Shown piece by piece: positions 1,413 through 57,057 of a stretch of DNA of 64,000 nt. Where the stretch lies: assembly GCA_017415485.1 (NCBI GenBank), contig JAFQGP010000115.1:8135-72134 (forward strand), given 5' to 3'. The first letter of the stretch is position 1; every line of letters starts with the position of its first letter. The position numbers were made by a program, and so were the translations under genes. Below the pieces are notes generated by a model that saw only the letters and a program-made list of their open reading frames with translations, was not told the DNA's origin and ran no database searches. This DNA comes from Clostridia bacterium (GTDB lineage: Bacteria > Bacillota > Clostridia > Oscillospirales > CAG-272).

Positions 1413-3479
1413 ATGAATAATCTTGATCCAAAATACGAAGCGTTATTTACCCCTTGGAAGGTCGGTAACGTTGAGATCAAAAACCGTATCGTAATGTGCC
1501 CGATGGGCGGAACCTCGCTTTTCGGCTGGTTCGAGCTTGGCGGATGCCATTTCGATAAGGAAGCCGCAAAGCTCTTCCTTGAGCGCGCACAGAACAACGT
1601 TGGTCTTATCATCCCCGGCATCGCACCCCTCCGCGATACTTTCTGGGGCAAGTGGCTCTGGCAGAACCCGAAGATGTTCGAGGACCTCAAGGTCTTTATG
1701 GACGAGATCCACAAGACGGGCGCAAAACTCTTCGTTCAGCTCACCGCAGGCATGGGCCGCTCCTGGGCGATCACCGAGCTTGTTGCTCCCCTTCACAAAA
1801 ACAAATTTACCCGCGCGATCCTCAAGCCCATTCTTGATACCTCGCATGAGCTTGCTTGTCCCTCTCCCCAGCCCTCGCGTTGGGCGCACGACATCATCTG
1901 CCCCGAGATTACGGTTGAGCAGATCCACGAGATCATCGAGGCTTTTGCAAAGACCGCAAAGCTCTGTATGGACGCGGGCGTTGACGGCGTCGAGGTTCAC
2001 GCTGTTCACGAGGGCTATCTCCTTGACCAGTTTGCGATCGAGTTCTTCAACAAGCGTACCGACAACTACGGCGGAAGCTTCGAGAACCGCTACCGCTTCG
2101 CAGTCGAGGTCGTTGATGCGATCAAGAAGGCTTGCGGCAAGGACTTCCCCGTTTCCCTCCGCTACTCAGTAGAGTCCAAGATGAAGGGCTTCTGCGAGGG
2201 CGCAATGCCCGGCGAGGATTACGTTGAGGTCGGACGTAATATGGAAGAATCCGAAAAGGCGGCAAAGTACCTGCAGGATGCGGGCTACGATATGCTCAAC
2301 GCCGACAACGGTACTTATGACTCCTGGTACTGGGCTCATCCGCCTATGTATATGCCCGAAAACTGCAACCTCGAGGACGTTGCACACATCAAGAAGTTCG
2401 TCGAGATTCCCGTTGTTTGTGCGGGACGTATGGATCCCGAGACGGGTGCCGCTGCCATTGCAGAGGGCAAGATCGACGGTATGGGCGTTGCGCGTCAGTT
2501 CCTGACCGACCCCGAATGGATCACCAAACTCATTGAAAACCGCATCGAGGACATCAAGCCCTGCATCTGCTGTCACGCGGGATGCTTTAACTTCTCTTCC
2601 TCGAAGGGTCACGCAAACACCCAGGATCTCACCGACACCATGGGACTTGCACGCTGCGCTCTCAACCCCGAGACTATGCAGTCAAAGAAATATAACATTC
2701 AGCCCGCAAAGAAGGCAAAGAAGGTCGCCGTCATCGGCGGCGGTATCGGCGGTATGGAAGCTGCTATCGTCTGCGCAAAGCGCGGCCACAGCGTAACTCT
2801 CTATGAAAAGTCGGGCGAGCTCGGCGGCGTATTCATCGCGGCAGCTTCTCCCTCCTTCAAGGAAAAGGATCGCGCGCTCATCGTGTGGTACAGAAGAGAG
2901 ATCTCGCGCTACCCCTCCATCACCGTTAAGCTTAACACCGAAGTCACCGACGTCAAGTCGCTCGGTGCGGACGAGGTGATCGTTGCTACCGGTGCCAAGG
3001 CAAAGAGGATCCCGATCCCCGGAGTTGAAAAGTCGATCGAAGCCGTCGATTTCCTCCTCGGCAAGAAGCAGGTTGGCGAAAGAATTGTTGTCATCGGCGG
3101 CGGTCTGACAGGATGCGAGATCGCATACGAGCTCTTCCTTCAGGGCAAGAAGCCCGCGATCGTTGAGATGATGGATGACCTCATCGTCACCCCCGGCATC
3201 TGTCTTGCAAACACCTCCTACCTCCGCGACTGCTTCAAGGCAAACAACCTGCCCGTATATCTCGAAACCGGCGTCAAGGAGATCAAGGACGGCGCGGTAG
3301 TCGTTGCCGACAAGGAAGGCAAGACTTTTGAGATCGAGGCTGATTCCGTCATCCTCTCGGTTGGATATAATCCCGCACCCATCGAAACCAAGGGCGTTCA
3401 CGTCATCGGCGACGCACAGAAAGTCGGCAACCTCCGCTCTGTAATTTGGGGAGCTTGGGACGTGGCAACAAAGATCTGA
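1413..3479 (+). CDS. NADH:flavin oxidoreductase of the 2-enoate reductase / 2,4-dienoyl-CoA reductase type (OYE barrel + Fe-S Cys motif + FAD/NAD(P) domain)
   Basis: 688 aa. OYE-like N-terminus (CPMGG, HEGYLLDQF), Cys cluster CICCHAGC, and two GxGxxG motifs (VAVIGGGIGG, VVIGGGLTG). Confidence 0.85.
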   Translation: MNNLDPKYEALFTPWKVGNVEIKNRIVMCPMGGTSLFGWFELGGCHFDKEAAKLFLERAQNNVGLIIPGIAPLRDTFWGKWLWQNPKMFEDLKVFMDEIHKTGAKLFVQLTAGMGRSWAITELVAPLHKNKFTRAILKPILDTSHELACPSPQPSRWAHDIICPEITVEQIHEIIEAFAKTAKLCMDAGVDGVEVHAVHEGYLLDQFAIEFFNKRTDNYGGSFENRYRFAVEVVDAIKKACGKDFPVSLRYSVESKMKGFCEGAMPGEDYVEVGRNMEESEKAAKYLQDAGYDMLNADNGTYDSWYWAHPPMYMPENCNLEDVAHIKKFVEIPVVCAGRMDPETGAAAIAEGKIDGMGVARQFLTDPEWITKLIENRIEDIKPCICCHAGCFNFSSSKGHANTQDLTDTMGLARCALNPETMQSKKYNIQPAKKAKKVAVIGGGIGGMEAAIVCAKRGHSVTLYEKSGELGGVFIAAASPSFKEKDRALIVWYRREISRYPSITVKLNTEVTDVKSLGADEVIVATGAKAKRIPIPGVEKSIEAVDFLLGKKQVGERIVVIGGGLTGCEIAYELFLQGKKPAIVEMMDDLIVTPGICLANTSYLRDCFKANNLPVYLETGVKEIKDGAVVVADKEGKTFEIEADSVILSVGYNPAPIETKGVHVIGDAQKVGNLRSVIWGAWDVATKI

Positions 3480-3611
3480 CGATCTTTGTTGCAATGAAAT
3501 CCGCCTTCGGCGGGTGAAATCGCGCGTTGCGCGATGAAATCGAGCTTCGCTCGGTGAAATCTTCGCCTTTGGCGAAGGTTTCGGAAGATTTTCTCGCGGG
3601 GCTCGAAAATC
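3465..3611. repeat. Hairpin-train element H1: 12-bp hairpin over the stop codon plus 4-5 GC hairpins separated by the word [AG]TGAAAT
   Basis: GCAACAAAGATC-TGAC-GATCTTTGTTGC, with the TGA stop in the loop. It is followed by aATGAAAT-ccgccttcggcgg, GTGAAAT-cgcgcgttgcgcg, ATGAAAT-cgagcttcgctcg and GTGAAAT-cttcgcctttggcgaag. Confidence 0.85.
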
Positions 3612-3632
3612 ATTTTTATTGAATGAAAGGAT

Positions 3633-4913
3633 ATGGATATGTATCTTAATGAAGAACAGCAGGCGATACTGAACGGCTCGCAGGGCGAGACTATGGCGAA
3701 GGTCATGAAGACCCTCGTTATGTTCGGTGACGCTTTCGGGGCCGAAAAGATGGTTCCCGTTACATCAAAGCACAATCACCTTGTAACCTCCTTTGGTCTC
3801 AAGGTCATGGCACCCGTTTATGACCTTATGCAGCAGCTTCTCGACGCGGGCGTAAAGTCGGGTCAGACCTTCTCGGTCGACCCCCGTCCCATCGACAAGA
3901 ACGTTCCCGCAAACTTCCTGCAGAATCTTGTTTTCAACAAGCTGATGTATACAAAGCAGGATTTCTATGAAGGACAGCTCAAGAAGCTCGGTCTTCTCTC
4001 GGATGATGCTTTCACCTGCGCTTGCTACCTCGATCAGGTCGGCAACAAGCCCGAAAAGGGCGACATCCTCTCGTGGGCAGAATCCTCCGCGGTCGTTTAC
4101 GCAAACTCCGTCCTCGGCGCGCGCTGCAACCGTAACTCGGGTATTATGGATATTATGGGCTCGATCGTCGGCTATGTTCCCTACTTCGGTCTTCTCACCG
4201 ATGAGGGCAGAAAGGCGACCTGGATCGTCAAGATCGAAACCACCAAGAAGCCCGAGGCGCAGCTTCTCGGCTCCGCTATCGGTATGAAGGTAATGGAGGA
4301 TGTTCCCTACGTTATCGGACTTGACAAGTGGATCGGCTCCGAGCTTGATGATTCGGCTTGCACCTATCTCAAGGATTTCGGTGCGGCAACCGCATCGAAC
4401 GGTGCTGTCGGACTTTACCACATCGACAACCTCACTCCCGAAGCAAAGGAGCTTGGAAAGGCACTTATTGCCGAGGGCGCAAAGGAATACGTCATCACCG
4501 ACGCCGAGCTTGAGAGAGTAAAGGCAAACTACCCCGTTATCTGGAAAGATCCCGATGCTACCCCGAAGCTCTGCTTTATGGGATGCCCCCATATGTCCCT
4601 CCAGCAGCTCAAGGATTGGACCGACAAGGTTGAAGCCGCTCTCAAAGCCGCAGGCAACAAGACCGTCCTCATTCCCACCGTCTTCACCGCACCTCCCAAG
4701 GTTCTTGAGGAGTTCAACAAGACCGATTACGCCGCTCGCCTCAAGGCAACGGGCGTTATCACCTCCTATATCTGTCCCCTTATGTATATGAACAACCCGC
4801 TCTGCAAGAAGATGCCCGTCATCACCTCGTCGAATAAGCTCCGCACCTACACCTCCGCGCGCTACTACACCGACGACGAAATTCTTGCAGCTATCACAAA
4901 GGGAGGTAAATGA
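3633..4913 (+). CDS. Aconitase X catalytic (large) subunit, DUF521 family
   Basis: 426 aa. The N-terminus MYLNEEQQAILNGSQGETMAKVMKTLVMFGDAFGAEKMVPV is typical of DUF521/AcnX. The stop overlaps the next gene's start (ATGA). Confidence 0.8.
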   Translation: MDMYLNEEQQAILNGSQGETMAKVMKTLVMFGDAFGAEKMVPVTSKHNHLVTSFGLKVMAPVYDLMQQLLDAGVKSGQTFSVDPRPIDKNVPANFLQNLVFNKLMYTKQDFYEGQLKKLGLLSDDAFTCACYLDQVGNKPEKGDILSWAESSAVVYANSVLGARCNRNSGIMDIMGSIVGYVPYFGLLTDEGRKATWIVKIETTKKPEAQLLGSAIGMKVMEDVPYVIGLDKWIGSELDDSACTYLKDFGAATASNGAVGLYHIDNLTPEAKELGKALIAEGAKEYVITDAELERVKANYPVIWKDPDATPKLCFMGCPHMSLQQLKDWTDKVEAALKAAGNKTVLIPTVFTAPPKVLEEFNKTDYAARLKATGVITSYICPLMYMNNPLCKKMPVITSSNKLRTYTSARYYTDDEILAAITKGGK

Positions 4914-6699: not shown

Positions 6700-8097
6700 A
6701 TGAAGAAATTTTTAGCACTTGCAATCACCGCTGCTATGCTTCTTTCCTTCGCAGTAATCGGTACATCCGCTGCAGAAGTATATGACGGCACAAGCGTATC
6801 CGCTTCCCTTTCCGGCGCGGGAACAGAGGCTGATCCCTATCTTATCGCAAACGGCGCAGACCTTGCATTCTTTGCTGCAAACGCAGTAGCAGGCGCTTCC
6901 TACAAGCTCACCGCTGACATCGTCTGGGCTTCCGCTGCCGAGGCAACCAACTGGACTCCCGTTGAATTCAACGGCACCTTCGACGGAAACGGTCACTCGA
7001 TCTCCGGCCTCTGCGTCAAGGGCGAAAAGAATGCTGCATTCTTCGCAACCGCAGCCGGTGCCATCAAGAACCTTACCATTAAGGATTCCACATTTGAGGG
7101 ATCGAAGTACATCGCCGCTATTGTCGGTCAGGTAGTAGCTGCAGACGCAAAGGAATCCGCTCCTTCTCTCACGATCGAGAACTGTGTAAGCTACGCTACC
7201 CTCATCTCGACCAAGAACAGCTCACTCATCGGCTCTATGATCGGCGACGCTTTCGCTAACGCGAAGACCCCCAACTATCTCACAGTTACAGTTTCGGGTT
7301 GTGTTAACTACGGCACCATCAGCTCCACCACGGACGGCACCGTTTACGTTGGCGGTATCATCGGCCGTACCTACGGTATTCCCGCAATTGTTGAAAACTG
7401 CGCGAACTTCGGCGATCTCAACTCCATTTCCGCTATCACCGGCGGTATCGTCGGCCAGGGCGGTATCAGCGGCGATACCTACGAAGGCTTCTCTACCAAG
7501 ATCAGCAACTGCCTTAACACCGGCAACGCGACCGGCAAGCGTATCTGCGGCGGTATCATCGGCCGTGCATACCCCGGCGTATACGTTGACGGATGTGTAA
7601 ACACCGGCAGCATGACCATCACCGCTACCGATGCGGCTAAGGACGGCTACAACGATCAGCTCGGCCCCATCACCGGCCACGGCCCCGATGCAAGAGCAGA
7701 TGCAGCTACCTTCGTCAACTGCGGTGAGATCACAAACTGCTACAACTCCGCAGAAGCAGTTTTCACCAACTCGAACGATGCAGCAGCCAAGCCCTTCTAC
7801 GCTTCTCTTGCAACCAATAAAACCGCTGCAGAGCTTAACAGCGCCGCTACCGTTACCGCTCTCGGCGACGCTTGGGAGCTCAAGGACGGCGTTCTTACTC
7901 TCAAGATCGTTGCTACCGCAGGCCAGGTTGAATCCGCACAGCCCGAGGTAACAGAACCTGAGGTTACCGAGCCCGCTCCCGAAGACACCAAGCCCGCGGA
8001 TCCCGTTCCCACCGGCGACTCCGCTCTCGTTTTCGCAGTGATCGCAATCATCTCCGTCCTCGGAGTTGCTGCTGTTGCAAAGAGAAGAGAGAATTAA
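6700..8097 (+). CDS. Secreted GLUG-like beta-helix repeat surface protein with a C-terminal PTGDSAL/TM/KRREN sorting signal
   Basis: Signal peptide MKKFLALAITAAMLLSFAVIGTSAAE. Repeats of CxNxG...GGIIG/GGIVG. Ends DPVPTGDSALVFAVIAIISVLGVAAVAKRREN. Confidence 0.85.
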   Translation: MKKFLALAITAAMLLSFAVIGTSAAEVYDGTSVSASLSGAGTEADPYLIANGADLAFFAANAVAGASYKLTADIVWASAAEATNWTPVEFNGTFDGNGHSISGLCVKGEKNAAFFATAAGAIKNLTIKDSTFEGSKYIAAIVGQVVAADAKESAPSLTIENCVSYATLISTKNSSLIGSMIGDAFANAKTPNYLTVTVSGCVNYGTISSTTDGTVYVGGIIGRTYGIPAIVENCANFGDLNSISAITGGIVGQGGISGDTYEGFSTKISNCLNTGNATGKRICGGIIGRAYPGVYVDGCVNTGSMTITATDAAKDGYNDQLGPITGHGPDARADAATFVNCGEITNCYNSAEAVFTNSNDAAAKPFYASLATNKTAAELNSAATVTALGDAWELKDGVLTLKIVATAGQVESAQPEVTEPEVTEPAPEDTKPADPVPTGDSALVFAVIAIISVLGVAAVAKRREN

Positions 8098-8329
8098 GTG
8101 GACAGTGGTTAGTGGACAGTGGACAGAAAGATGCGAATGATAATTTAATTTGTATATTTGCTATCCATTGTACTAACTAATAATTTAATAGAAAAAACTC
8201 GGATATTATGACGCGTTTGCATCAAAATATCCGAGTTTTTCTATCGCTTATCCAAACGAAGTTAACAGTGCACAAAACAAAATTACTTGTCGCAACTTTC
8301 TGTTCACTGTCCACTAACCACTGTTCCCT
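8098..8329. repeat. Palindromic intergenic element E1 (GTGGACA-heptamer arms, AT-rich core with a bidirectional terminator)
   Basis: The left arm GTGGACAGTGGTTAGTGGACAGTGGACAGAAAG (8098-8130) is the reverse complement of 8296-8328 with 2-3 mismatches. The element fills essentially the whole gap between two converging stop codons (8097 and 8332). Confidence 0.9.
8192..8241. terminator. Bidirectional rho-independent terminator inside E1
   Basis: AAAAACTCGGATATT ... AATATCCGAGTTTTT, with an A-tract and a T-tract on the two sides. Confidence 0.75.
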
Positions 8330-29321: not shown

Positions 29322-29412
29322 ATCAACCTCGCAAAAAATTTCGTTACACTATAATTATAATCTATTTTGCGACGAAATGTAACCCCTAAAAAGGTGGGAA
29401 ACTGGGAAATTA

Positions 29413-29713
29413 GTGGGCAGATCAGAGTGGACAGTGGACAGATCAGAGTGGACAGTGGACAGTGGACAGTGAACAGAAAGATGCGAATGATATTTTTATT
29501 TATCTTTTCTGTTAATTATTAAACAAATAATTTAATATATAAAACTCTCGGATATCTTGAATTCCTTCAAATATCCGAGAGTATTTTTTATTGCTTATTA
29601 CTCTTTAGTATAATACAAAAACTCTATGTTTTGCACAAAATTATTGCAGCAACCCGCATCTTTCTGTCCACTGTCCACTAACCACTGTCCACTCTTATCT
29701 GACCACTGTCCAC
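29413..29713. repeat. Palindromic intergenic element E3 (GTGGACA-heptamer arms, same family as E1)
   Basis: The left arm has (GTGGACA)n interspersed with GATCAGA and ends CAGAAAGATGCGAATGA as in E1. The right arm CTTTCTGTCCACTGTCCACTAACCACTGTCCAC is the exact reverse complement of the E1 left arm. Confidence 0.9.
29541..29589. terminator. Terminator hairpin in the E3 core
   Basis: ACTCTCGGATAT ... ATATCCGAGAGT followed by TTTTTT. It is homologous in position and sequence to the E1 core hairpin, with a TC/GA insertion pair in the stem. Confidence 0.7.
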
Positions 29714-29718
29714 TTTGC

Positions 29719-32028: not shown

Positions 32029-32423
32029 AGTGCGAACATAGACGCACTCGGTGTCCCCTCATCACCCGCTACGTCAGAACCCCAAAAACGCGCAAGCGCG
32101 TTTCCGGGAACCCGACGGCTGGAGCTTCTCCCAGGAGAAGCCTAAGGAAAGCTGTCGCTTTGAGCTAAATATTTCTCTGTTAGAGAAATGCTAAATTTTC
32201 GCTATGCAAAAGCTAAATACGCGCTTTGCGCGAGCTAAATATTCCGCCAAAGCGGAATGCAAAGGTAGAAATTTGCCAAGGCAAATTTCAATTTCATTTA
32301 ATTAATGATACGAATATTAGACAATACCAAACGAAGCTCACAGTAACCCCAGGCTTCTCCTGGAAGAAGCTCCCTCCGCAGAGGGTGATGAGGGGACACC
32401 CAGAAAGCTTTGTTCGCACTTGC
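32029..32423. repeat. Long palindromic intergenic element E4 (E2 arm family) with a central GCTAAAT hairpin train
   Basis: The arms GGTGTCCCCTCATCACCCGC...GGAGCTTCTCCCAGGAGAAGCC pair with their reverse complement at 32345-32423. The core at 32162-32292 has 5 hairpins separated by GCTAAAT. It is about 90% identical to E6. Confidence 0.9.
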
Positions 32424-34918: not shown

Positions 34919-35285
34919 GCAAGTGCGAACAAAGCTTTCTGGGTGTCCCCTCATCACCCGCTACGTCAGAACCCCAAAAACGCGCAAGCGCGTTTCCGGG
35001 AACCCGACGGCGGGAGCTTCTCCCAGGAGAAGCCTAGGGAGTCTAACGCCTTGAGCTAAATATTTCTCTCTTAGAGAAATGCTAAATTTTTGCTATGCAA
35101 AAGCTAAATTCGCGCTTTGCGCGAGCTAAATATTCCGCTAAAGCGGAATGCAAAGGTAGAAATTTGCCAATGCAAATTTCAATTTAATAAATAATTCGAA
35201 GATTCGAGAATTCCAAACGAAGCTCACAGTAACCCCAGGCTTCTCCTGGGAGAAGCTCCCGCCGCAGCGGGTGATGAGGGGACAC
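34919..35285. repeat. Long palindromic intergenic element E6 (near-copy of E4, same orientation)
   Basis: Same arms as E4, and the same GCTAAAT hairpin train at 35053-35183. Confidence 0.9.
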
Positions 35286-38904: not shown

Positions 38905-39114
38905 ATGAAAAAGAACCTTATCTGGAACATTATCTTAATAATCGGCATCATCCCTTTCATACTTCCGTTCGCTTTCGGCATATACAAAATTTCGATCGAA
39001 AGCTGGACGATGTTCGATTGGCTCGTTATGTACTCGTACATTTTTTGGCCCACTTATATCGTCGGCGCGGTAGTTATCGCGATTTCGATCATTGGAAGAT
39101 TCATAAAAAAGTGA
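38905..39114 (+). CDS. Small hydrophobic membrane protein (69 aa), the AT-rich cargo of element copy A
   Basis: MKKNLIWNIILIIGIIPFILPFAF..., with 2-3 TM segments. AT-rich codon usage unlike its neighbours. The stop lies inside the first hairpin of H3. Confidence 0.5.
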   Translation: MKKNLIWNIILIIGIIPFILPFAFGIYKISIESWTMFDWLVMYSYIFWPTYIVGAVVIAISIIGRFIKK

Positions 39115-39275
39115 AGGAGCAAAACCTCCCCGCGGGGAGGTTTTACTCCTTCCAAACAGCCTGCGGGGCGCAGTCTGTTTGAAGCGCAAGGGAATTTCGC
39201 CCTCTGCGGAGGGCGACTTAAGGCTCTGCCTTAAGAAACCGCAACCTTTTGAAAAAGGTTGACCAAAACTTTGAT
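39111..39275. repeat. Structured repeat H3 (right module, copy A)
   Basis: GTGAAGGAGCAAAACCTCCCCGCGGGGAGGTTTTACTCCTTC... contains five hairpins and is homologous to 44837-45001 with compensatory stem changes. Confidence 0.9.
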
Positions 39276-40695: not shown

Positions 40696-40842
40696 ATGAA
40701 GAGAATTCGTACTATCAATACTCGTGACCTCAAGGCTTCCGTTAAGAACGGCGGATGCGGCGAGTGCCAGACCTCCTGCCAGTCCGCTTGCAAGACCTCT
40801 TGCGGTGTTGCTAACCAGGCTTGCGAGAAAAAGGCAAAGTAA
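40696..40842 (+). CDS. scfA: SCIFF (six-cysteines-in-forty-five) ranthipeptide precursor
   Basis: 48 aa: MKRIRTINTRDLKASVKNGGCGECQTSCQSACKTSCGVANQACEKKAK. AGGTGG RBS. It was embedded in a longer track ORF. Confidence 0.92.
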   Translation: MKRIRTINTRDLKASVKNGGCGECQTSCQSACKTSCGVANQACEKKAK

Positions 40843-40880: not shown

Positions 40881-41090
40881 CGATATAGATCCTTGCGGAT
40901 CTGTGATATACGCAGAGCGTGCGATATACCTTCGGCACGATATGCCCCTTCGGGGCGTGATTTCACGTTCGCCTTCGGCGAACATATCGTATCGCGCTTT
41001 GCACGATATATCGTACTGTTTGCCAAAGGCAAACAGTATATCGTATGAGCATAGCGAATATATCGTGTTTACTAAATAAACGAGGTTAAC
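40881..41090. repeat. Hairpin-train element H4 (word CGATAT / ATATCG, overall palindromic)
   Basis: About 9 GC hairpins (gatccttgcggatc, gccccttcggggc, gttcgccttcggcgaac, actgtttgccaaaggcaaacagt ...). The spacer is (G)CGATAT(A) in the left half and ATATCGT in the right half. The centre is cgtgatttcacg. Confidence 0.85.
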
Positions 41091-41092
41091 CG

Positions 41093-41464
41093 ATGAATAA
41101 TATCACTATACGCGAATTAGCAGTAGAATTGACCGTTGAAATTACGCAAATATGCGATAATATCAAAGGAAGAAGCGTTTTCATAAATCAAATTTTGAGA
41201 TCCTGTTCTTCCATCGGAGCAAATTCCGCAGAAGCCAAATATGCACAAAGTTCCGCAGACTTCATTCACAAATTGGAAATCTCACTCAAAGAATGCTATG
41301 AAACCGATTATTGGCTTGAAATCCTTTATAAAACCAATTCAATGGATAAAGAAACATATATAAGATTGTTAAATAAATGCGGTTCTATTCGCAGAAAGCT
41401 TATTGCCTCCATAACAACGGCAAAAGCAAATTCAGAACAGCAATCCGGAGGTACAACAAAATGA
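41093..41464 (+). CDS. Four-helix-bundle protein (23S rRNA intervening-sequence protein family, PF05635/TIGR02436)
   Basis: 123 aa. Contains ...QILRSCSSIGANSAEAKYAQSSADFIHKLEISLKECYETDYWLEIL. AT-rich. Its stop overlaps the scfB ATG (ATGA). Confidence 0.85.
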   Translation: MNNITIRELAVELTVEITQICDNIKGRSVFINQILRSCSSIGANSAEAKYAQSSADFIHKLEISLKECYETDYWLEILYKTNSMDKETYIRLLNKCGSIRRKLIASITTAKANSEQQSGGTTK

Positions 41465-42843
41465 TCCATTCCTATAAACTTGGCGGTTACAATATCGTCC
41501 TTGACGTCGGCTCGGGCGCGGTGCACGCGGTTGATGATCTTGCCTATGACGTCATAAATCTCTACGAAACCAAGTCGGCAGACGAGATCGTCTCGGTCTG
41601 CCTTGAAAAATTCGCCTCCGAAGGTATCACCGAAGAGGACATCCGCGACACGATCTCCGACGTTGAAGAGCTCAAACAGAGCGGCAAACTTTACGCCGAG
41701 GATATCTATGCGCCCCTCGTCGGCAAGCTCAAGAACAATTCCAACATCGTCAAGGCACTCTGCCTGCACGTCGCGCACACCTGCAACCTCAACTGCGAAT
41801 ACTGCTTCGCGGCACAGGGTCGATTCCACGGCGAACGCGCCCTGATGTCATTTGAGGTCGGCAAGCGCGCGCTTGATTTCCTTGTTGAAAACTCGGGAAC
41901 CCGCCACAATCTTGAAGTCGACTTCTTCGGCGGCGAGCCGCTGATGAACTGGCAGGTCGTCAAGGATCTCGTTGCCTACGCGCGCTCGATCGAGGAAGCC
42001 GCAGGCAAGCATTTCCGCTTCACGCTGACGACAAACGGCGTGCTGATCGACGACGACGTCATTGATTTTGCCAACAAAGAGATGGACAACGTCGTTCTCT
42101 CGCTCGACGGCAGACGCCACGTGCACGACAACCTCCGCAAAACTGTGAACGGTCAGGGCAGCTATGACCTGATCCTTCCGAAGTTCAAGGAATTCGTCAC
42201 CCGCCGCGGCGACAAGGGCTACTATATGCGCGGTACATACACCAAGTTCAACACCGATTTCTGCTCCGACATCATCCACATGGCTGACGAAGGCTTTACC
42301 GAGCTTTCGATGGAGCCCGTAGTCTGCCCTCCCGGCGACCCCTACGCACTCGGCGACGAGGATCTGCCCGTGCTTTACGATCAGTATGAAAAGCTCGCCT
42401 TTGAGATGATGGACCGCAAGAAGCGCGGCAAGCCGATCACCTTCTATCACTATATGCTCGACCTTGAGGGCGGCCCCTGCATCTACAAGAGAATTTCCGG
42501 CTGCGGCTCGGGCACCGAGTATATGGCTGTCACCCCTTGGGGCGACCTTTACCCCTGCCATCAGTTCGTCGGCGACGAAAAATACCTCCTCGGCGACATC
42601 TGGAAGGGCGTAACGAACGACGCCATCCGCGACGAATTCCGCTCCTGCTCGGCATATTCGAGAGAGGAATGCCGCGACTGCTGGGCCAGACTCTACTGCT
42701 CCGGCGGCTGCGCCGCGAACTCCTACCACGCAACCGGAAGCGTAAACGGCGTTTATGAGTACGGATGTAAGCTGTTCAAGAAACGAATCGAGTGCGCGAT
42801 CATGCTGAAGGTCGCGGAATCCCTCGAAAACGAAGAAGAATAA
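41461..42843 (+). CDS. scfB: SCIFF radical SAM/SPASM maturase
   Basis: Start at MIHSYKLGGYNIVLDVGSGAVHAVDD. CNLNCEYC radical-SAM motif and a Cys-rich SPASM C-terminus (CRDCWARLYCSGGCAANS). Confidence 0.92.
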   Translation: MIHSYKLGGYNIVLDVGSGAVHAVDDLAYDVINLYETKSADEIVSVCLEKFASEGITEEDIRDTISDVEELKQSGKLYAEDIYAPLVGKLKNNSNIVKALCLHVAHTCNLNCEYCFAAQGRFHGERALMSFEVGKRALDFLVENSGTRHNLEVDFFGGEPLMNWQVVKDLVAYARSIEEAAGKHFRFTLTTNGVLIDDDVIDFANKEMDNVVLSLDGRRHVHDNLRKTVNGQGSYDLILPKFKEFVTRRGDKGYYMRGTYTKFNTDFCSDIIHMADEGFTELSMEPVVCPPGDPYALGDEDLPVLYDQYEKLAFEMMDRKKRGKPITFYHYMLDLEGGPCIYKRISGCGSGTEYMAVTPWGDLYPCHQFVGDEKYLLGDIWKGVTNDAIRDEFRSCSAYSREECRDCWARLYCSGGCAANSYHATGSVNGVYEYGCKLFKKRIECAIMLKVAESLENEEE

Positions 42844-44599: not shown

Positions 44600-44836
44600 T
44601 GACGATATATCAAGAGCCCTCCCGCTTGCGGGAGGGTTGGGAGGGGAGTCAGCGGCGCGCGAAATTTGAGCACCAAAACCAAACTCAAAGCGAAATATAA
44701 TAAAAATGTGAAAATCCGCCGCGGCGGATTTTTCCTTTACGTTCCGCGGTGCGGAACATATCGCATCGCGAAGCGATATATCGTATCCGCAGGATATATC
44801 GCGCCGAAGGCATATCGTGCGCCCTGCGGGCGCAGG
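44600..44836. repeat. Hairpin-train element H6a (ATATCG word)
   Basis: ccctcccgcttgcgggaggg and aaatccgccgcggcggattt, followed by gttccgcggtgcggaac-ATATCGC-atcgcgaagcgat-ATATCGT-atccgcaggat-ATATCGC-gccgaaggc-ATATCGT-gcgccctgcgggcgc. Confidence 0.85.
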
Positions 44837-55341: not shown

Positions 55342-57057
55342 TCAGTTCGTCTTCTCTCCGTAAACGAGGATCTCGCGGGTATTGATGGTGTTGTATTTGT
55401 TTTCTTCGTCATTTCTGCCGACAATGACGCCAACACGGATATACTGTCCCTCGACACCGCCCATATCAAACAGGCAGGTGACCTTCGAGGTATTGCCGTT
55501 CCAGGGGTCCTTCGGCGAGGTTCCGCAGTTGACAAGATCGGTTCCTGTCACCTGATTCCAGCAAGCCGTAGGCACCTGGGTCCAATTCACTCCGTCATCG
55601 CTGACATAGACAGCAGCAACTCCGGGGAATCCCTCAAGGCTTCCCGAAGCGAATCCCATTGCATCAAACTTGTGCTTCGAGCCGAAATTGAGGGTGATAA
55701 GGCAGGTATAGGGAGAATTTGCATCGACCTCGCCCTTGATGTTATAGGTCTTATCGTCAAAGACGAAGTTTGCCATAAAGGAGTTGCCCCAGTGGCCGTT
55801 GACAAGGTTTTCGACAGCTGTGGTGTAGCCCTTTGCGGAGGAATCCATTTTTTCGATACCTATTACCGAAACACCGTAGCCGATATCGGCAATGTCAGCC
55901 TTCTGCGCGTCGGTAAGTCCCGTGGTCGAATACTCGGTCGATGCGATCGCATTCTTGGTGCCGAGAATACCCGAGAAGCTCTTGCCGTTCGGGTATGTTC
56001 CGCCCTCGAGGACGGAGATGAGCTTCGACTTCGGGAAAGCGGTCAGGTTCTTCATAGCCGAAGCATCGACCGCATAGGTCTTCTCAACGAATTCAACGCC
56101 GACAGACGAGGTCTTGTACTTTTCGGGGATCGCGGGAGTCTCCCAAACAGCCTTGCGAGCCGCTTCTTTGAGAACAGCCGCCGCTTCATCGGTAAGATTT
56201 GCATTGTAATCGACCGTGGTGGGATCGATACCCGTGATCTTTGCAAAGATCGTCATCGCCGCGAGATAGCTTCCCGTAGCGTTGGGGTGGGTCAGGTCGG
56301 AATCATAGAGGTTGATGTTCTTGTTATTGTTATAAACGTCAAAGAAAGCAAGACCCGCATATGCAATGTCGATACCGAGCTCGGCGCCGATAGCCTCGTA
56401 TGCCGCGCTGATCATCCAGGTCATACTCTCGTTGGTCCAGCCGTTTTCCTTGAGAACGCTGTGTCCCTCTTTTCTGCCCCAGGTGCCGTAGAGAATGGGG
56501 GTCGCGCCGTCTGCAATCACCTTTGCGGCAAGGTTGCGCACGCCGGTGTAGAACTTATCGGGGTACAGCGCGGGGCAGGTGCTCTGCTCCTGCAGAACGA
56601 TGTAATCGTAATCGCGGAGCTTAAGCGCGGAGTCAACCTTCGCGCCGACCTCGTCGGTCGACTTTGCGGAATCGATCAGATACCATCCGCCCTTGGTGAT
56701 ACGGGTGACGGTGGCATCATAGCCCGCCGCCTTCAGTATCTTCGCAAAGATCTGCTCGGGCATATCGTTATAATGAGTATAGCTGTTTCCGATAAAGAGG
56801 AAATTGTATTTCTTGCTCTTGTCGAGGACCGTGGTTTCGGGCTCGGCGGTGGTCTCGGGAGCGGGCTCGGTCGCCTCGGTCTCGGGAGCGGGCTCGGTCG
56901 CCTCGGTCTCGGGAGCGGCAGTGGTTACTTCAATTTCGGGTGCTTTGGTGGTTTCCTCGGGGGCTGTGGTGACTTCACCTTCGCCCGTGCAGGCAACACC
57001 CGCAAAAAGCATTGAGAAAAGCAAAAGCATTGCGATCAATCTCTTTTTCATTGTCAT
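55342..57057 (-). CDS. Lipoprotein with a DUF4886 (SGNH-like) domain and a C-terminal discoidin-like domain
   Basis: Lipobox FAGVACT. T/E/P-rich linker with the EATEPAPET repeat. FLFIGNSYTHYNDMP is DUF4886-like. Confidence 0.6.
   Translation of the reverse strand: MTMKKRLIAMLLLFSMLFAGVACTGEGEVTTAPEETTKAPEIEVTTAAPETEATEPAPETEATEPAPETTAEPETTVLDKSKKYNFLFIGNSYTHYNDMPEQIFAKILKAAGYDATVTRITKGGWYLIDSAKSTDEVGAKVDSALKLRDYDYIVLQEQSTCPALYPDKFYTGVRNLAAKVIADGATPILYGTWGRKEGHSVLKENGWTNESMTWMISAAYEAIGAELGIDIAYAGLAFFDVYNNNKNINLYDSDLTHPNATGSYLAAMTIFAKITGIDPTTVDYNANLTDEAAAVLKEAARKAVWETPAIPEKYKTSSVGVEFVEKTYAVDASAMKNLTAFPKSKLISVLEGGTYPNGKSFSGILGTKNAIASTEYSTTGLTDAQKADIADIGYGVSVIGIEKMDSSAKGYTTAVENLVNGHWGNSFMANFVFDDKTYNIKGEVDANSPYTCLITLNFGSKHKFDAMGFASGSLEGFPGVAAVYVSDDGVNWTQVPTACWNQVTGTDLVNCGTSPKDPWNGNTSKVTCLFDMGGVEGQYIRVGVIVGRNDEENKYNTINTREILVYGEKTN
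56851..56918. repeat. 27-nt tandem repeat (2.5 copies) encoding the linker of the lipoprotein
   Basis: GGTCTCGGGAGCGGGCTCGGTCGCCTC x2 plus a partial copy; on the minus strand it encodes (EATEPAPET)n. Confidence 0.9.

Follow-up and report, generated by a model that had tools for sequence, protein, structure and literature searches.

A Gut-1 hairpin train behind a flavoprotein gene and its apparent place in a wider family of intergenic hairpin arrays of gut Clostridia

In a 64,000-nucleotide (nt) stretch of DNA from a Clostridia bacterium of the CAG-272 lineage (contig JAFQGP010000115.1; hereafter the window, meaning the whole stretch analysed), the spacer between a flavoprotein gene and acnX, the gene for aconitase X (AcnX), is occupied by a train of short GC-rich hairpins set apart by the word TGAAAT. 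This train is a full-length copy of the known Gut-1 RNA motif and not a new kind of system. Positions 3492–3565 of the + strand match the Rfam model of Gut-1 RNA, RF01706, with 75.6 bits against a gathering score of 50, covering model positions 1–77 of 77, with an E-value of 2.4e-13 over the window and 1.8e-15 locally, and this is the single Rfam match of the window at gathering thresholds. The Gut-1 consensus reads CAaUGAAAU-hairpin-GUGAAAU-hairpin-GUGAAAU-hairpin-GUGAAAU; the train likewise has four (R)UGAAAU words flanking and parting three short, covarying hairpins, and comes, like Gut-1, from gut-metagenome Clostridia. Membership in Gut-1, the modular, dispersed and polymorphic character of the element, its strong polarity to gene ends and the co-variation of its first hairpin arms are established. 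Comparison of many copies suggests, beyond this, that Gut-1 represents one word-type among several in a larger family of hairpin arrays dispersed between the genes of gut Clostridia.

Gut-1 first appeared among the 104 candidate RNAs of Weinberg et al. (2010), with 43 representatives, all from human-gut reads; it was rated ‘RNA: Y, cis-regulatory: n’, is typed in Rfam as ‘Gene; sRNA’ (small RNA), and was described as present only in human-gut environmental sequence and in no sequenced organism, with neither context nor function given (PMC2864571). Our literature search found no mention of Gut-1 beyond that paper. The window copy differs from the 77-nt motif in having a large 5′ hairpin, a fourth small hairpin unit, a tail and a terminal hairpin, all conserved and all outside the Rfam model, and in lying in the putative 3′ trailer of a gene, with sister arrays that carry other words. 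Trains are also found in metagenome-assembled genomes (MAGs) from ruminant guts and in MAGs labelled Akkermansia or Bacteroidaceae.

A full-length Gut-1 train at the flavoprotein–acnX junction

The train fills the spacer from the flavoprotein stop codon to the ribosome-binding site (RBS) of acnX (Table 1). The flavoprotein open reading frame (ORF) ends with the codons GCA ACA AAG ATC TGA (A T K I stop), and its last four sense codons are the 5′ arm of the large first hairpin (LH). The left arm GCAACAAAGATC (3465–3476) and the right arm GATCTTTGTTGC (3481–3492) form 12 of 12 possible Watson–Crick pairs, and the loop TGAC (3477–3480) holds the stop codon TGA (3477–3479), exactly as a preliminary description of this DNA, made from the letters alone, had drawn it. 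LH has the C-G closing pair and T-N-N-C loop typical of the family. The words begin at 3495, 3515, 3535 and 3555 with an exact 20-nt period and are preceded by A, G, A and G, which confirms the constant [AG]TGAAAT reported ahead of each of the four GC hairpins; the loops, given earlier as 3–4 nt, are 3 nt long in all four small hairpins and 4 nt long only in LH.

LH lacks a U-tract, its stem being followed by AAUGAAAUCC, and a terminator scan made no sense-strand call at it, so that LH does not qualify as an intrinsic terminator. The only match of that scan in 3300–3800 is on the minus strand (CCGCCGAAGGCGG plus ATTTCATTGC), and a promoter scan found no promoter-like site in the same interval. 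The terminal hairpin, which the simple terminator scan did not call, is possibly a weak forward terminator.

Three words with N13 spacers were found in none of 100 shuffles of the window, as opposed to two overlapping matches at the train, and RTGAAAT is not enriched window-wide, with 14 occurrences against 25 expected. The train folds with z-scores of −6.4 (+ strand) and −6.8 (− strand) as RNA, and −8.3 and −8.7 for the two strands as DNA; with DNA parameters the folding energies of the two strands are nearly equal, at −40.7 and −39.4 kcal/mol. Three independent metagenome assemblies with a gene for the same protein have the region in identical form. Chance or an assembly artefact is ruled out by the shuffle tests together with this identity.

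Several other candidates were also set aside. The mini-ORFs of the form ATGAAAT...TGA, which would give MKSAFGG* and MKSSFAR*, are judged to be a by-product of the word and of the 20/21-nt spacing; they are discounted because they have no Shine–Dalgarno sequence and because A stands ahead of the word in a minority of units only. An RNA array of a type III toxin–antitoxin system is ruled out by units that are non-identical and by the lack of an adjacent toxin gene. The layout had also been called the inverse of a CRISPR array. As in CRISPR, constant and variable segments alternate regularly, but the analogy is formal: the constant part is 6–7 nt long, there are no constant repeats of 25–40 nt and no unique spacers, the variable parts are self-complementary and not foreign-derived, and trains have 3–5 units and stand at many loci. 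A Pfam scan of the six ORFs nearest the train, and of those six only, found no cas gene among them.

Variation at orthologous gene ends

Orthologous gene ends were compared in 80 metagenomic loci (50–78% identical) and 120 database homologues (84–100% identity). All orthologues, train-bearing or not, end in ...WD[VI][AC][MT][KR][IL]*, and their stop codons coincide in position. The coding arm of LH is therefore ancestral, and the preliminary description was right to treat the first arm as coding sequence; the element is ruled out as the donor of the gene's C-terminus, which is conserved together with the stop in train-less orthologues. In most orthologues the site is empty, with a spacer of 10–30 nt to acnX, the acnX RBS 10–21 nt after the flavoprotein stop, no hairpin at the stop codon and no train. 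In several lineages trains occupy exactly this same site (Table 2), and the terminal hairpin is kept in all of the train-bearing orthologues, including the distant L132, and is lacking at empty sites.

Table 2 First hairpins and trains at orthologous flavoprotein gene ends (L numbers are locus labels).
Locus	First hairpin	Words of the train
Window, L336	GCAACAAAGATC-T[GA]AC-GATCTTTGTTGC	AA/TA + TGAAAT ×4
L205	GCAACAAAGC-TGTAA-GCTTTGTTGC	TGAAAT ×3 (window units 1, 2 and 4; loops changed)
L204, L206, L332	ATKL-type, as in L205	TGATAT ×4, ×3, ×4; different stems
L165 (distant)	GCAATGAAGC-TTTAA-GCTTCATTGC	TGATAT ×3 + TGAAAT
L132 (distant)	Right arm as in L165; A→V in the coding arm uncompensated	TGAAAT ×4
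L122 (distant)	None; train directly after TAA	TGATGT + TGATAT ×3

Among these loci the two arms of the first hairpin change together, the complementary arm following the coding one. The window and L336 read ...AAAGATC-T[GA]AC-GATCTTT..., and L204, L205, L206 and L332 read ...AAAGC-TGTAA-GCTTT..., so that ATC is answered by GAT in one lineage and C by G in another. First hairpins across the orthologues have a C-G closing pair and a loop that begins with T, and in the window and L336 the stop codon makes up the first three loop bases (TGAC, TAAC). The last codon of filled alleles in the window lineage is ATC, which provides the C-G closing pair; in the empty alleles L335 and L334 it is ATT.

The closest filled and empty alleles are those of L336, with a spacer of about 300 nt, and L335, with 12 nt. 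Both encode the identical 688-aa protein, and their flanks are 97.6% identical over about 2.1 kb of coding DNA (gene end at 3067). The empty junction reads ...ATT TAA/GGAGAAATAGAT ATG and the filled one ...ATC TAA/CGATC...TTTTGAAA/GGATATAGAT ATG, with slashes at the breakpoints; no clear target-site duplication or terminal inverted repeat is visible there. Synonymous sites within about 20 nt of the junction go with the allele type, which suggests that the filled/empty polymorphism has spread by homologous recombination.

The preliminary description had gone on to argue that the complementary arm was generated or selected against the gene's own 3′ end, and that this pointed to a templated origin instead of insertion of a pre-formed element. 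The first part agrees with the co-evolution of the two arms, with L132 as the uncompensated case. The second is partly supported for the non-coding arm of LH, which matches the gene end, and not supported for the rest of the train, which is a member of the Gut-1 family seen at many unrelated loci and which, as a block that is filled or empty within one species-level lineage, looks pre-formed. For the matched arm, template-switch copying and stepwise compensatory selection are both sufficient explanations, between which the data do not decide.

Between train-bearing lineages the flanks are 86–92% identical and the intergenic regions 66–82%, and in contigs of the same strain the intergenic region is 100% identical. 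A hypermutable array is ruled out by this same-strain identity and by a divergence between lineages that is ordinary for non-coding DNA. Words are intact, as between orthologues with 87–92% identical flanks, or changed in concert, whereas loops and stems drift in a compensated manner and whole units come and go; purifying selection on pairing and on the words may be taken as established. At this one locus all words are TGAAAT in the window, L205 and L336 and all are TGATAT in L204, L206 and L332. The pair L165 and L132 belongs to a second, separate clade with a switch between TGAAAT and TGATAT, and the intervening hairpins have not been homogenized. Non-canonical pairing between words might underlie the switch from TGAAAT to TGATAT; this is speculation, and it fits some word types only. 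At L209, whose protein is 90% identical, positions 3573–3620 lack hairpins but have TGAAAT twice, as a bare word, shortly before the acnX RBS, which could be the remnant or the seed of a train.

Sister arrays and the wider family

Further trains in the window were found by a word-independent search for hairpin chains with constant gaps and by a relaxed-word search. There are about six in total, or roughly one array per 10–12 kb (Table 1). Their orientations are mixed, and GC skew is uniformly negative over the window. In other genomes the Rfam model also picks up trains, both at orthologous and at unrelated loci, among them some TGATAT arrays above threshold, with 72.4 bits for L204 and 58.7 bits for L165.

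Table 1 Features of the window.
Feature	Position	Strand	Details
Flavoprotein gene	1413..3479	+	688-aa FMN/FAD oxidoreductase; Pfam domains Oxidored_FMN and Pyr_redox_2
Large first hairpin (LH)	3465..3492	+	Perfect 12 base pairs (bp); co-variation with the coding arm among orthologues
Unit 1	3495..3514	+	TGAAAT, hairpin CCGCC-TTC-GGCGG, then G; outer T3500·G3514
Unit 2	3515..3534	+	TGAAAT, hairpin CGCGC-GTT-GCGCG, then A; outer T3520-A3534
Unit 3	3535..3554	+	TGAAAT, hairpin CGAGC-TTC-GCTCG, then G; absent from orthologue L205
Unit 4	3555..3578	+	TGAAAT, hairpin CTTCGCC-TTT-GGCGAAG, then G; past the 3′ end of the Rfam model
Tail GGTTTCGGAAG	3578..3587	+	Shine–Dalgarno-like; GTGAAGG, GTTAAGG, GCAAAGG or GTTGAGG in other copies
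Terminal hairpin plus ATTTTTATT	3587..3620	+	Hairpin GATTTTC...GAAAATC at 3587–3611
acnX (aconitase X)	3625..4913	+	RBS GAAAGGA; start at 3633 or 3639
Train, G-CTAAAT ×4	32165..32240	+	Within a module of ~270 nt, between two minus-strand ORFs
Second copy of the CTAAAT train module	35056..35131	+	Found by the hairpin-chain and relaxed-word searches
Head-to-head composite	40881..41065		Forward CGATAT/TGATAT half at 40881–40943 (+) abuts reverse half at 40960–41065 (−); Gut-1 40.7 bits, under the gathering score
Train, R-CGATAT ×4	44736..44830	−	Loops TTC/TGC/TTC; between two terminator-like hairpins; Gut-1 24.1 bits, − strand

A pattern scan of species-representative genomes, requiring three TGAAAT words, returned at least 120 loci; of the 120 matches listed, 42 are real trains. 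Nearly all of these come from MAGs of Clostridia, Eubacteriales, Acutalibacteraceae, Ruminococcaceae and Oscillospiraceae from human and ruminant guts. A few train-bearing MAGs are labelled Akkermansia(ceae) or Bacteroidaceae, a label that possibly results from mis-binning. Among the viral-contig matches listed only 1 of 120 is a real train, which rules out a phage-borne element. In one MAG labelled Akkermansia sp. (L013, 2200–3400), a module of about 470 nt stands three times in tandem, each copy with a TGAAAT train (Gut-1, 60–67 bits) followed directly by a CGAGAT train, and no long ORF is near.

The family plan consists of a large 5′ hairpin, in many cases the terminator of the upstream gene itself, three to five word-plus-hairpin units, a Shine–Dalgarno-like tail and often a terminal hairpin; in each unit a single-stranded, A-rich word of 6 nt precedes a perfect hairpin of 5–9 bp that is rich in GC. 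In the trains from the pattern scan, 3–4 such units are followed by a last hairpin ahead of the tail. The words seen across the family are TGAAAT, TGATAT, CGATAT, CGAGAT and CTAAAT. A large 5′ hairpin of at least 7 bp is present in 23 of 56 trains and is terminator-like, with an A-run and a T-run, in 13 of those 23; it typically joins the train as TTTTCA[AG]/TGAAAT. Head-to-head composites of trains are frequent. In 120 distinct units from 58 trains the stem sequences all differ although the pairing is kept, the inner pairs being 641 Watson–Crick, 1 G·T, 4 A·C and 4 other. A C-G pair closes the loop in 107 of the 120 units. Triloops occur in 79 units and tetraloops in 35; T-N-C accounts for 49 of the former and T-N-N-C for about 19 of the latter, as opposed to only 2 GNA loops on the same strand. 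The word-final T faces the R that precedes the next word, as T·G in 74 units and T-A in 46, which accounts for the [AG] noticed ahead of the words in the preliminary description.

Trains usually lie 3′ of a gene end or terminator. We chose transfer RNA (tRNA) genes as orientation markers in place of the noisy ORF context. In 12 cases a tRNA gene lies no more than 350 nt away on the 5′ side of a train; it shares the strand of the train in 11 of them and is on the opposite strand in 1. The usual distance is 27–44 nt, which leaves room for a terminator only, and eight tRNA genes scored as downstream and opposite belong to the far halves of composites. Directly behind a tRNA gene stand 10 of 66 trains, which we read as a strong enrichment. 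For ORFs of at least 250 aa that end within 100 nt upstream, a hand tally in this noisy context gives 10 co-oriented and 3 opposite. In the window, a six-cysteine SCIFF ranthipeptide precursor gene (40696–40842; TIGR03973, 85.6 bits) and its radical-SAM maturase gene (41377–42843; TIGR03974, 758 bits) are separated by 534 nt that hold a terminator-like hairpin and then the forward/reverse composite. Peptide-precursor operons commonly carry partial terminators or stabilizing stem-loops after the precursor gene.

The closest known systems share only part of this plan. Similar to the repetitive extragenic palindromes (REPs) and bacterial interspersed mosaic elements (BIMEs) of Enterobacteria and Pseudomonas, trains are high-copy intergenic palindrome arrays, mostly at the 3′ ends of transcription units, and vary in presence between strains, as in the filled/empty pair above (PMC2817692, PMC3116915). 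REP stems, however, are conserved in sequence within a genome, whereas train stems differ in every unit and at every window locus; REP units alternate in orientation, whereas train units are direct and inverted only between whole trains, in composites; and REPs carry a GTAG foot recognized by REP-associated tyrosine transposases (RAYTs), whereas the conserved part of trains is the linker word. Intrinsic terminators and the stem-loops behind precursors of ribosomally synthesized and post-translationally modified peptides (RiPPs) are also GC hairpins directly after stop codons; the large hairpin of many train copies is a canonical bidirectional terminator, and one train stands behind the SCIFF precursor gene. 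The unit hairpins of trains, and LH in the window, lack sense-strand U-tracts, and four to five hairpins with constant linkers are not a terminator feature. The DNA mini-hairpins GCGNAGC and GCGNNAGC resemble the opposite strand of the trains, where most units become C-G-closed GNA or GNNA hairpins (GCGAAGC in unit 3, CCGAAGG in unit 1). The known ones are single and sit at single-stranded DNA (ssDNA) origins of phages and plasmids (PMC13037366, PMC3201870), whereas trains are chromosomal, dispersed and polar to genes.

Other repeats were noted in the window. Palindromes of the form GCTTCTCC-cag-GGAGAAGC bracket the two ~270-nt modules (32040–32360 and 34980–35260) that have a CTAAAT train inside, and a similar palindrome, CCTTCTCCC...GGGAGAAGG, stands beside the train at the orthologous loci L336 and L332; these look like a second family of intergenic palindromic repeats in the lineage. 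Tandem heptamer repeats AGTGGAC, in 4–7 copies and with an inverted set, CTGTCCA, about 200 nt away at 29.4–29.7 kb, were noted at 8097–8126, 29412–29476 and 29664–29714. A palindromic stretch at 39088–39154, with weak sub-threshold Rfam matches on both strands to plastid psbA 3′ untranslated region (UTR) models, is probably a long terminator-type hairpin, and a perfect 27-nt tandem repeat lies in 2.5 copies in a GC-rich stretch at 56851–56918.

A proposed RNA module weighed against its rivals

The reading that we favour, with confidence about midway along the scale, is that the train is a REP/BIME-like structured repeat in a 3′ trailer which acts in cis as a 3′-end or intercistronic stabilizer. 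REP/BIME arrays are thought to stabilize upstream mRNA, and it is by analogy with these and with the terminator-proximal stem-loops behind peptide-precursor genes that we infer such a role. The flavoprotein mRNA probably extends through the train, which would be its 3′ trailer or lie between cistrons: the stop codon is inside LH, LH has no U-tract, and no promoter-like site was found between gene and train. Stacked hairpins would then be barriers to 3′→5′ exonucleases, and the array, acting as RNA, could insulate neighbouring units from each other or partly terminate transcription. The single-stranded A-rich words are probable recognition sites for an endonuclease or another protein; cleavage within them would leave the upstream message capped at its end by a hairpin and would start the downstream message with a hairpin and a Shine–Dalgarno-like stabilizer, so that the last hairpin and the tail may protect the acnX side. 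The first hairpin would have been recruited from the last codons of the gene, with its non-coding arm held complementary by compensatory selection or by template-switch correction of quasipalindromes. The location of trains 3′ of tRNA genes and of a peptide-precursor gene, and in intercistronic spacers, is consistent with this cis-acting RNA module.

A number of observations weigh against it. Words are homogeneous within an array and differ between arrays of one genome, which makes a single sequence-specific binding factor a poor fit. Homogeneity was counted in 55 of 76 arrays, a figure inflated by the fetching of most loci with the three-TGAAAT pattern; among 12 listed trains from loci not selected by word (11 distinct, the L201 row being the window's own), 9 are homogeneous. 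In 193 units, variant words included, 1025 Watson–Crick pairs stand against 51 mismatches (G·T 9, A·C 16, other 26), so that G·U is not in excess on the Rfam strand; the spectrum is about that of unselected new mutations, and a structure under selection as RNA would usually have more G·U. The loops, C-UNC-G and C-UNNC-G, are not of the stable RNA types UUCG or GNRA, and the stable GNA/GNNA versions lie on the strand opposite the Rfam model. Orientation to flanking genes is not strict, the train at 32.2 kb lying between opposite-strand ORFs, and in head-to-head composites the partner half points in the wrong direction. A train behind a large hairpin that is a strong terminator would be transcribed by read-through only.

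Several of these features are those expected if the element works at the level of DNA, a reading that we consider unlikely but the foremost competitor. Palindrome arrays would act as, or arise from, ssDNA hairpins or cruciforms and not RNA; the opposite strand would form C-GNA-G or C-GNNA-G mini-hairpins, template switching would keep stems perfect, and arrays would grow and shrink by slippage or flap-hairpin duplication, with a host role in replication, priming or topology, or else as selfish or neutral elements. The missing wobble signature, the strong loop asymmetry and the prevalence of C-G closing pairs speak for it, as do a lax orientation to transcription and unit numbers that differ between orthologues. 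GCGNAGC and GCGNNAGC have exceptional stability as DNA, far above that of their RNA forms; such mini-hairpins, which include non-GNRA forms such as GTTA, mark ssDNA priming sites and bind the single-stranded DNA-binding protein SSB poorly (PMC13037366; PMC3201870), and quasipalindrome template switching is an established mutation mechanism (PMC7202029). In one form of this idea, to which we likewise give a low probability, Gut-1 is not primarily RNA but one word-type of a new class of RAYT-independent DNA palindrome arrays seeded beside the terminators of highly transcribed genes; intrastrand template switching would then have made the first arm as a copy of the coding sequence next to it. Against a DNA-level element, the 11:1 polarity to upstream tRNA genes follows transcription units, and transcription of the upstream gene uses the mini-hairpin strand as its template; in co-directional genes this strand is the leading-strand template and is less exposed as ssDNA. 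In addition, the DNA folding energies of the two strands are equal, 62% of units have an outer T·G pair, which is not a DNA palindrome, and purifying selection on the words argues against a purely neutral by-product.

The remaining alternatives are less probable. Small RNAs derived from 3′ UTRs are a known class, and the train could be processed from a 3′ UTR to act in trans, as an sRNA or as a sponge whose UGAAAU words titrate an oligomeric RNA-binding protein. Words that are conserved, regularly spaced and single-stranded fit this proposal, and so does the curation of Gut-1 as an sRNA with covariation support (PMC2864571). We judge it distinctly unlikely, as copies are many and dispersed, each at the 3′ end of a different gene, the words differ within the window (TGAAAT, CTAAAT, CGATAT), no promoter was found between stop codon and train, and the locus is dispensable, with an empty allele within one species-level lineage. 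Slightly less credible still is an origin of the whole train on the spot, with the gene's 3′ end as the start of fold-back or hairpin-primed synthesis and with no pre-existing element. The non-coding arm is indeed an exact inverted copy of the gene's last 12 nt that differs by lineage with the gene, empty alleles lack it, and hairpin sequences are unique to each locus; but no part other than the first hairpin is related to the local sequence, hundreds of unrelated loci have the same words, unit design, tail and terminal hairpin, in agreement with a family model, and the insert is a block allele exchanged with its flank, with synonymous sites at the junction following the allele. We find least credible of all an antisense terminator array, in which each unit of the opposite strand, read as GC hairpin, GNA/GNRA-type loop and AUUUCA, would be a weak intrinsic terminator and the array would stop converging or antisense transcription before it reached the upstream gene. 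The sole terminator-scan match at the junction does lie on that strand, which also has the stable loop types, head-to-head composites stand between convergent tRNA genes (for example, L014), and the 16 A·C against 9 G·T on the Rfam strand would mean slightly more G·U on the opposite one, a difference that is not significant. A three-U tract is very weak, however, both flanking genes are co-directional with no evident antisense source, the large hairpin of the window locus is a terminator in neither direction, and 62% of units would have C·A mismatched at their outer position.

For the window itself the gain in annotation is modest: the train is a known motif in a probable 3′ trailer, and an ordinary instance of its family. 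The stem and loop signatures now seen in Gut-1, with no wobble pairs and with loops complementary to GNA mini-hairpins, are more like those of DNA palindromes than those of RNA helices, a caution that covarying sets of hairpins are not always RNA genes. Also new for Gut-1 are the several linker words, the gain and loss of whole blocks between close relatives and the recruitment of codons as a hairpin arm. Gut-1, an orphan since 2010, thus acquires a context as an abundant, modular intergenic repeat that stands behind gene ends, strikingly often those of tRNA genes.

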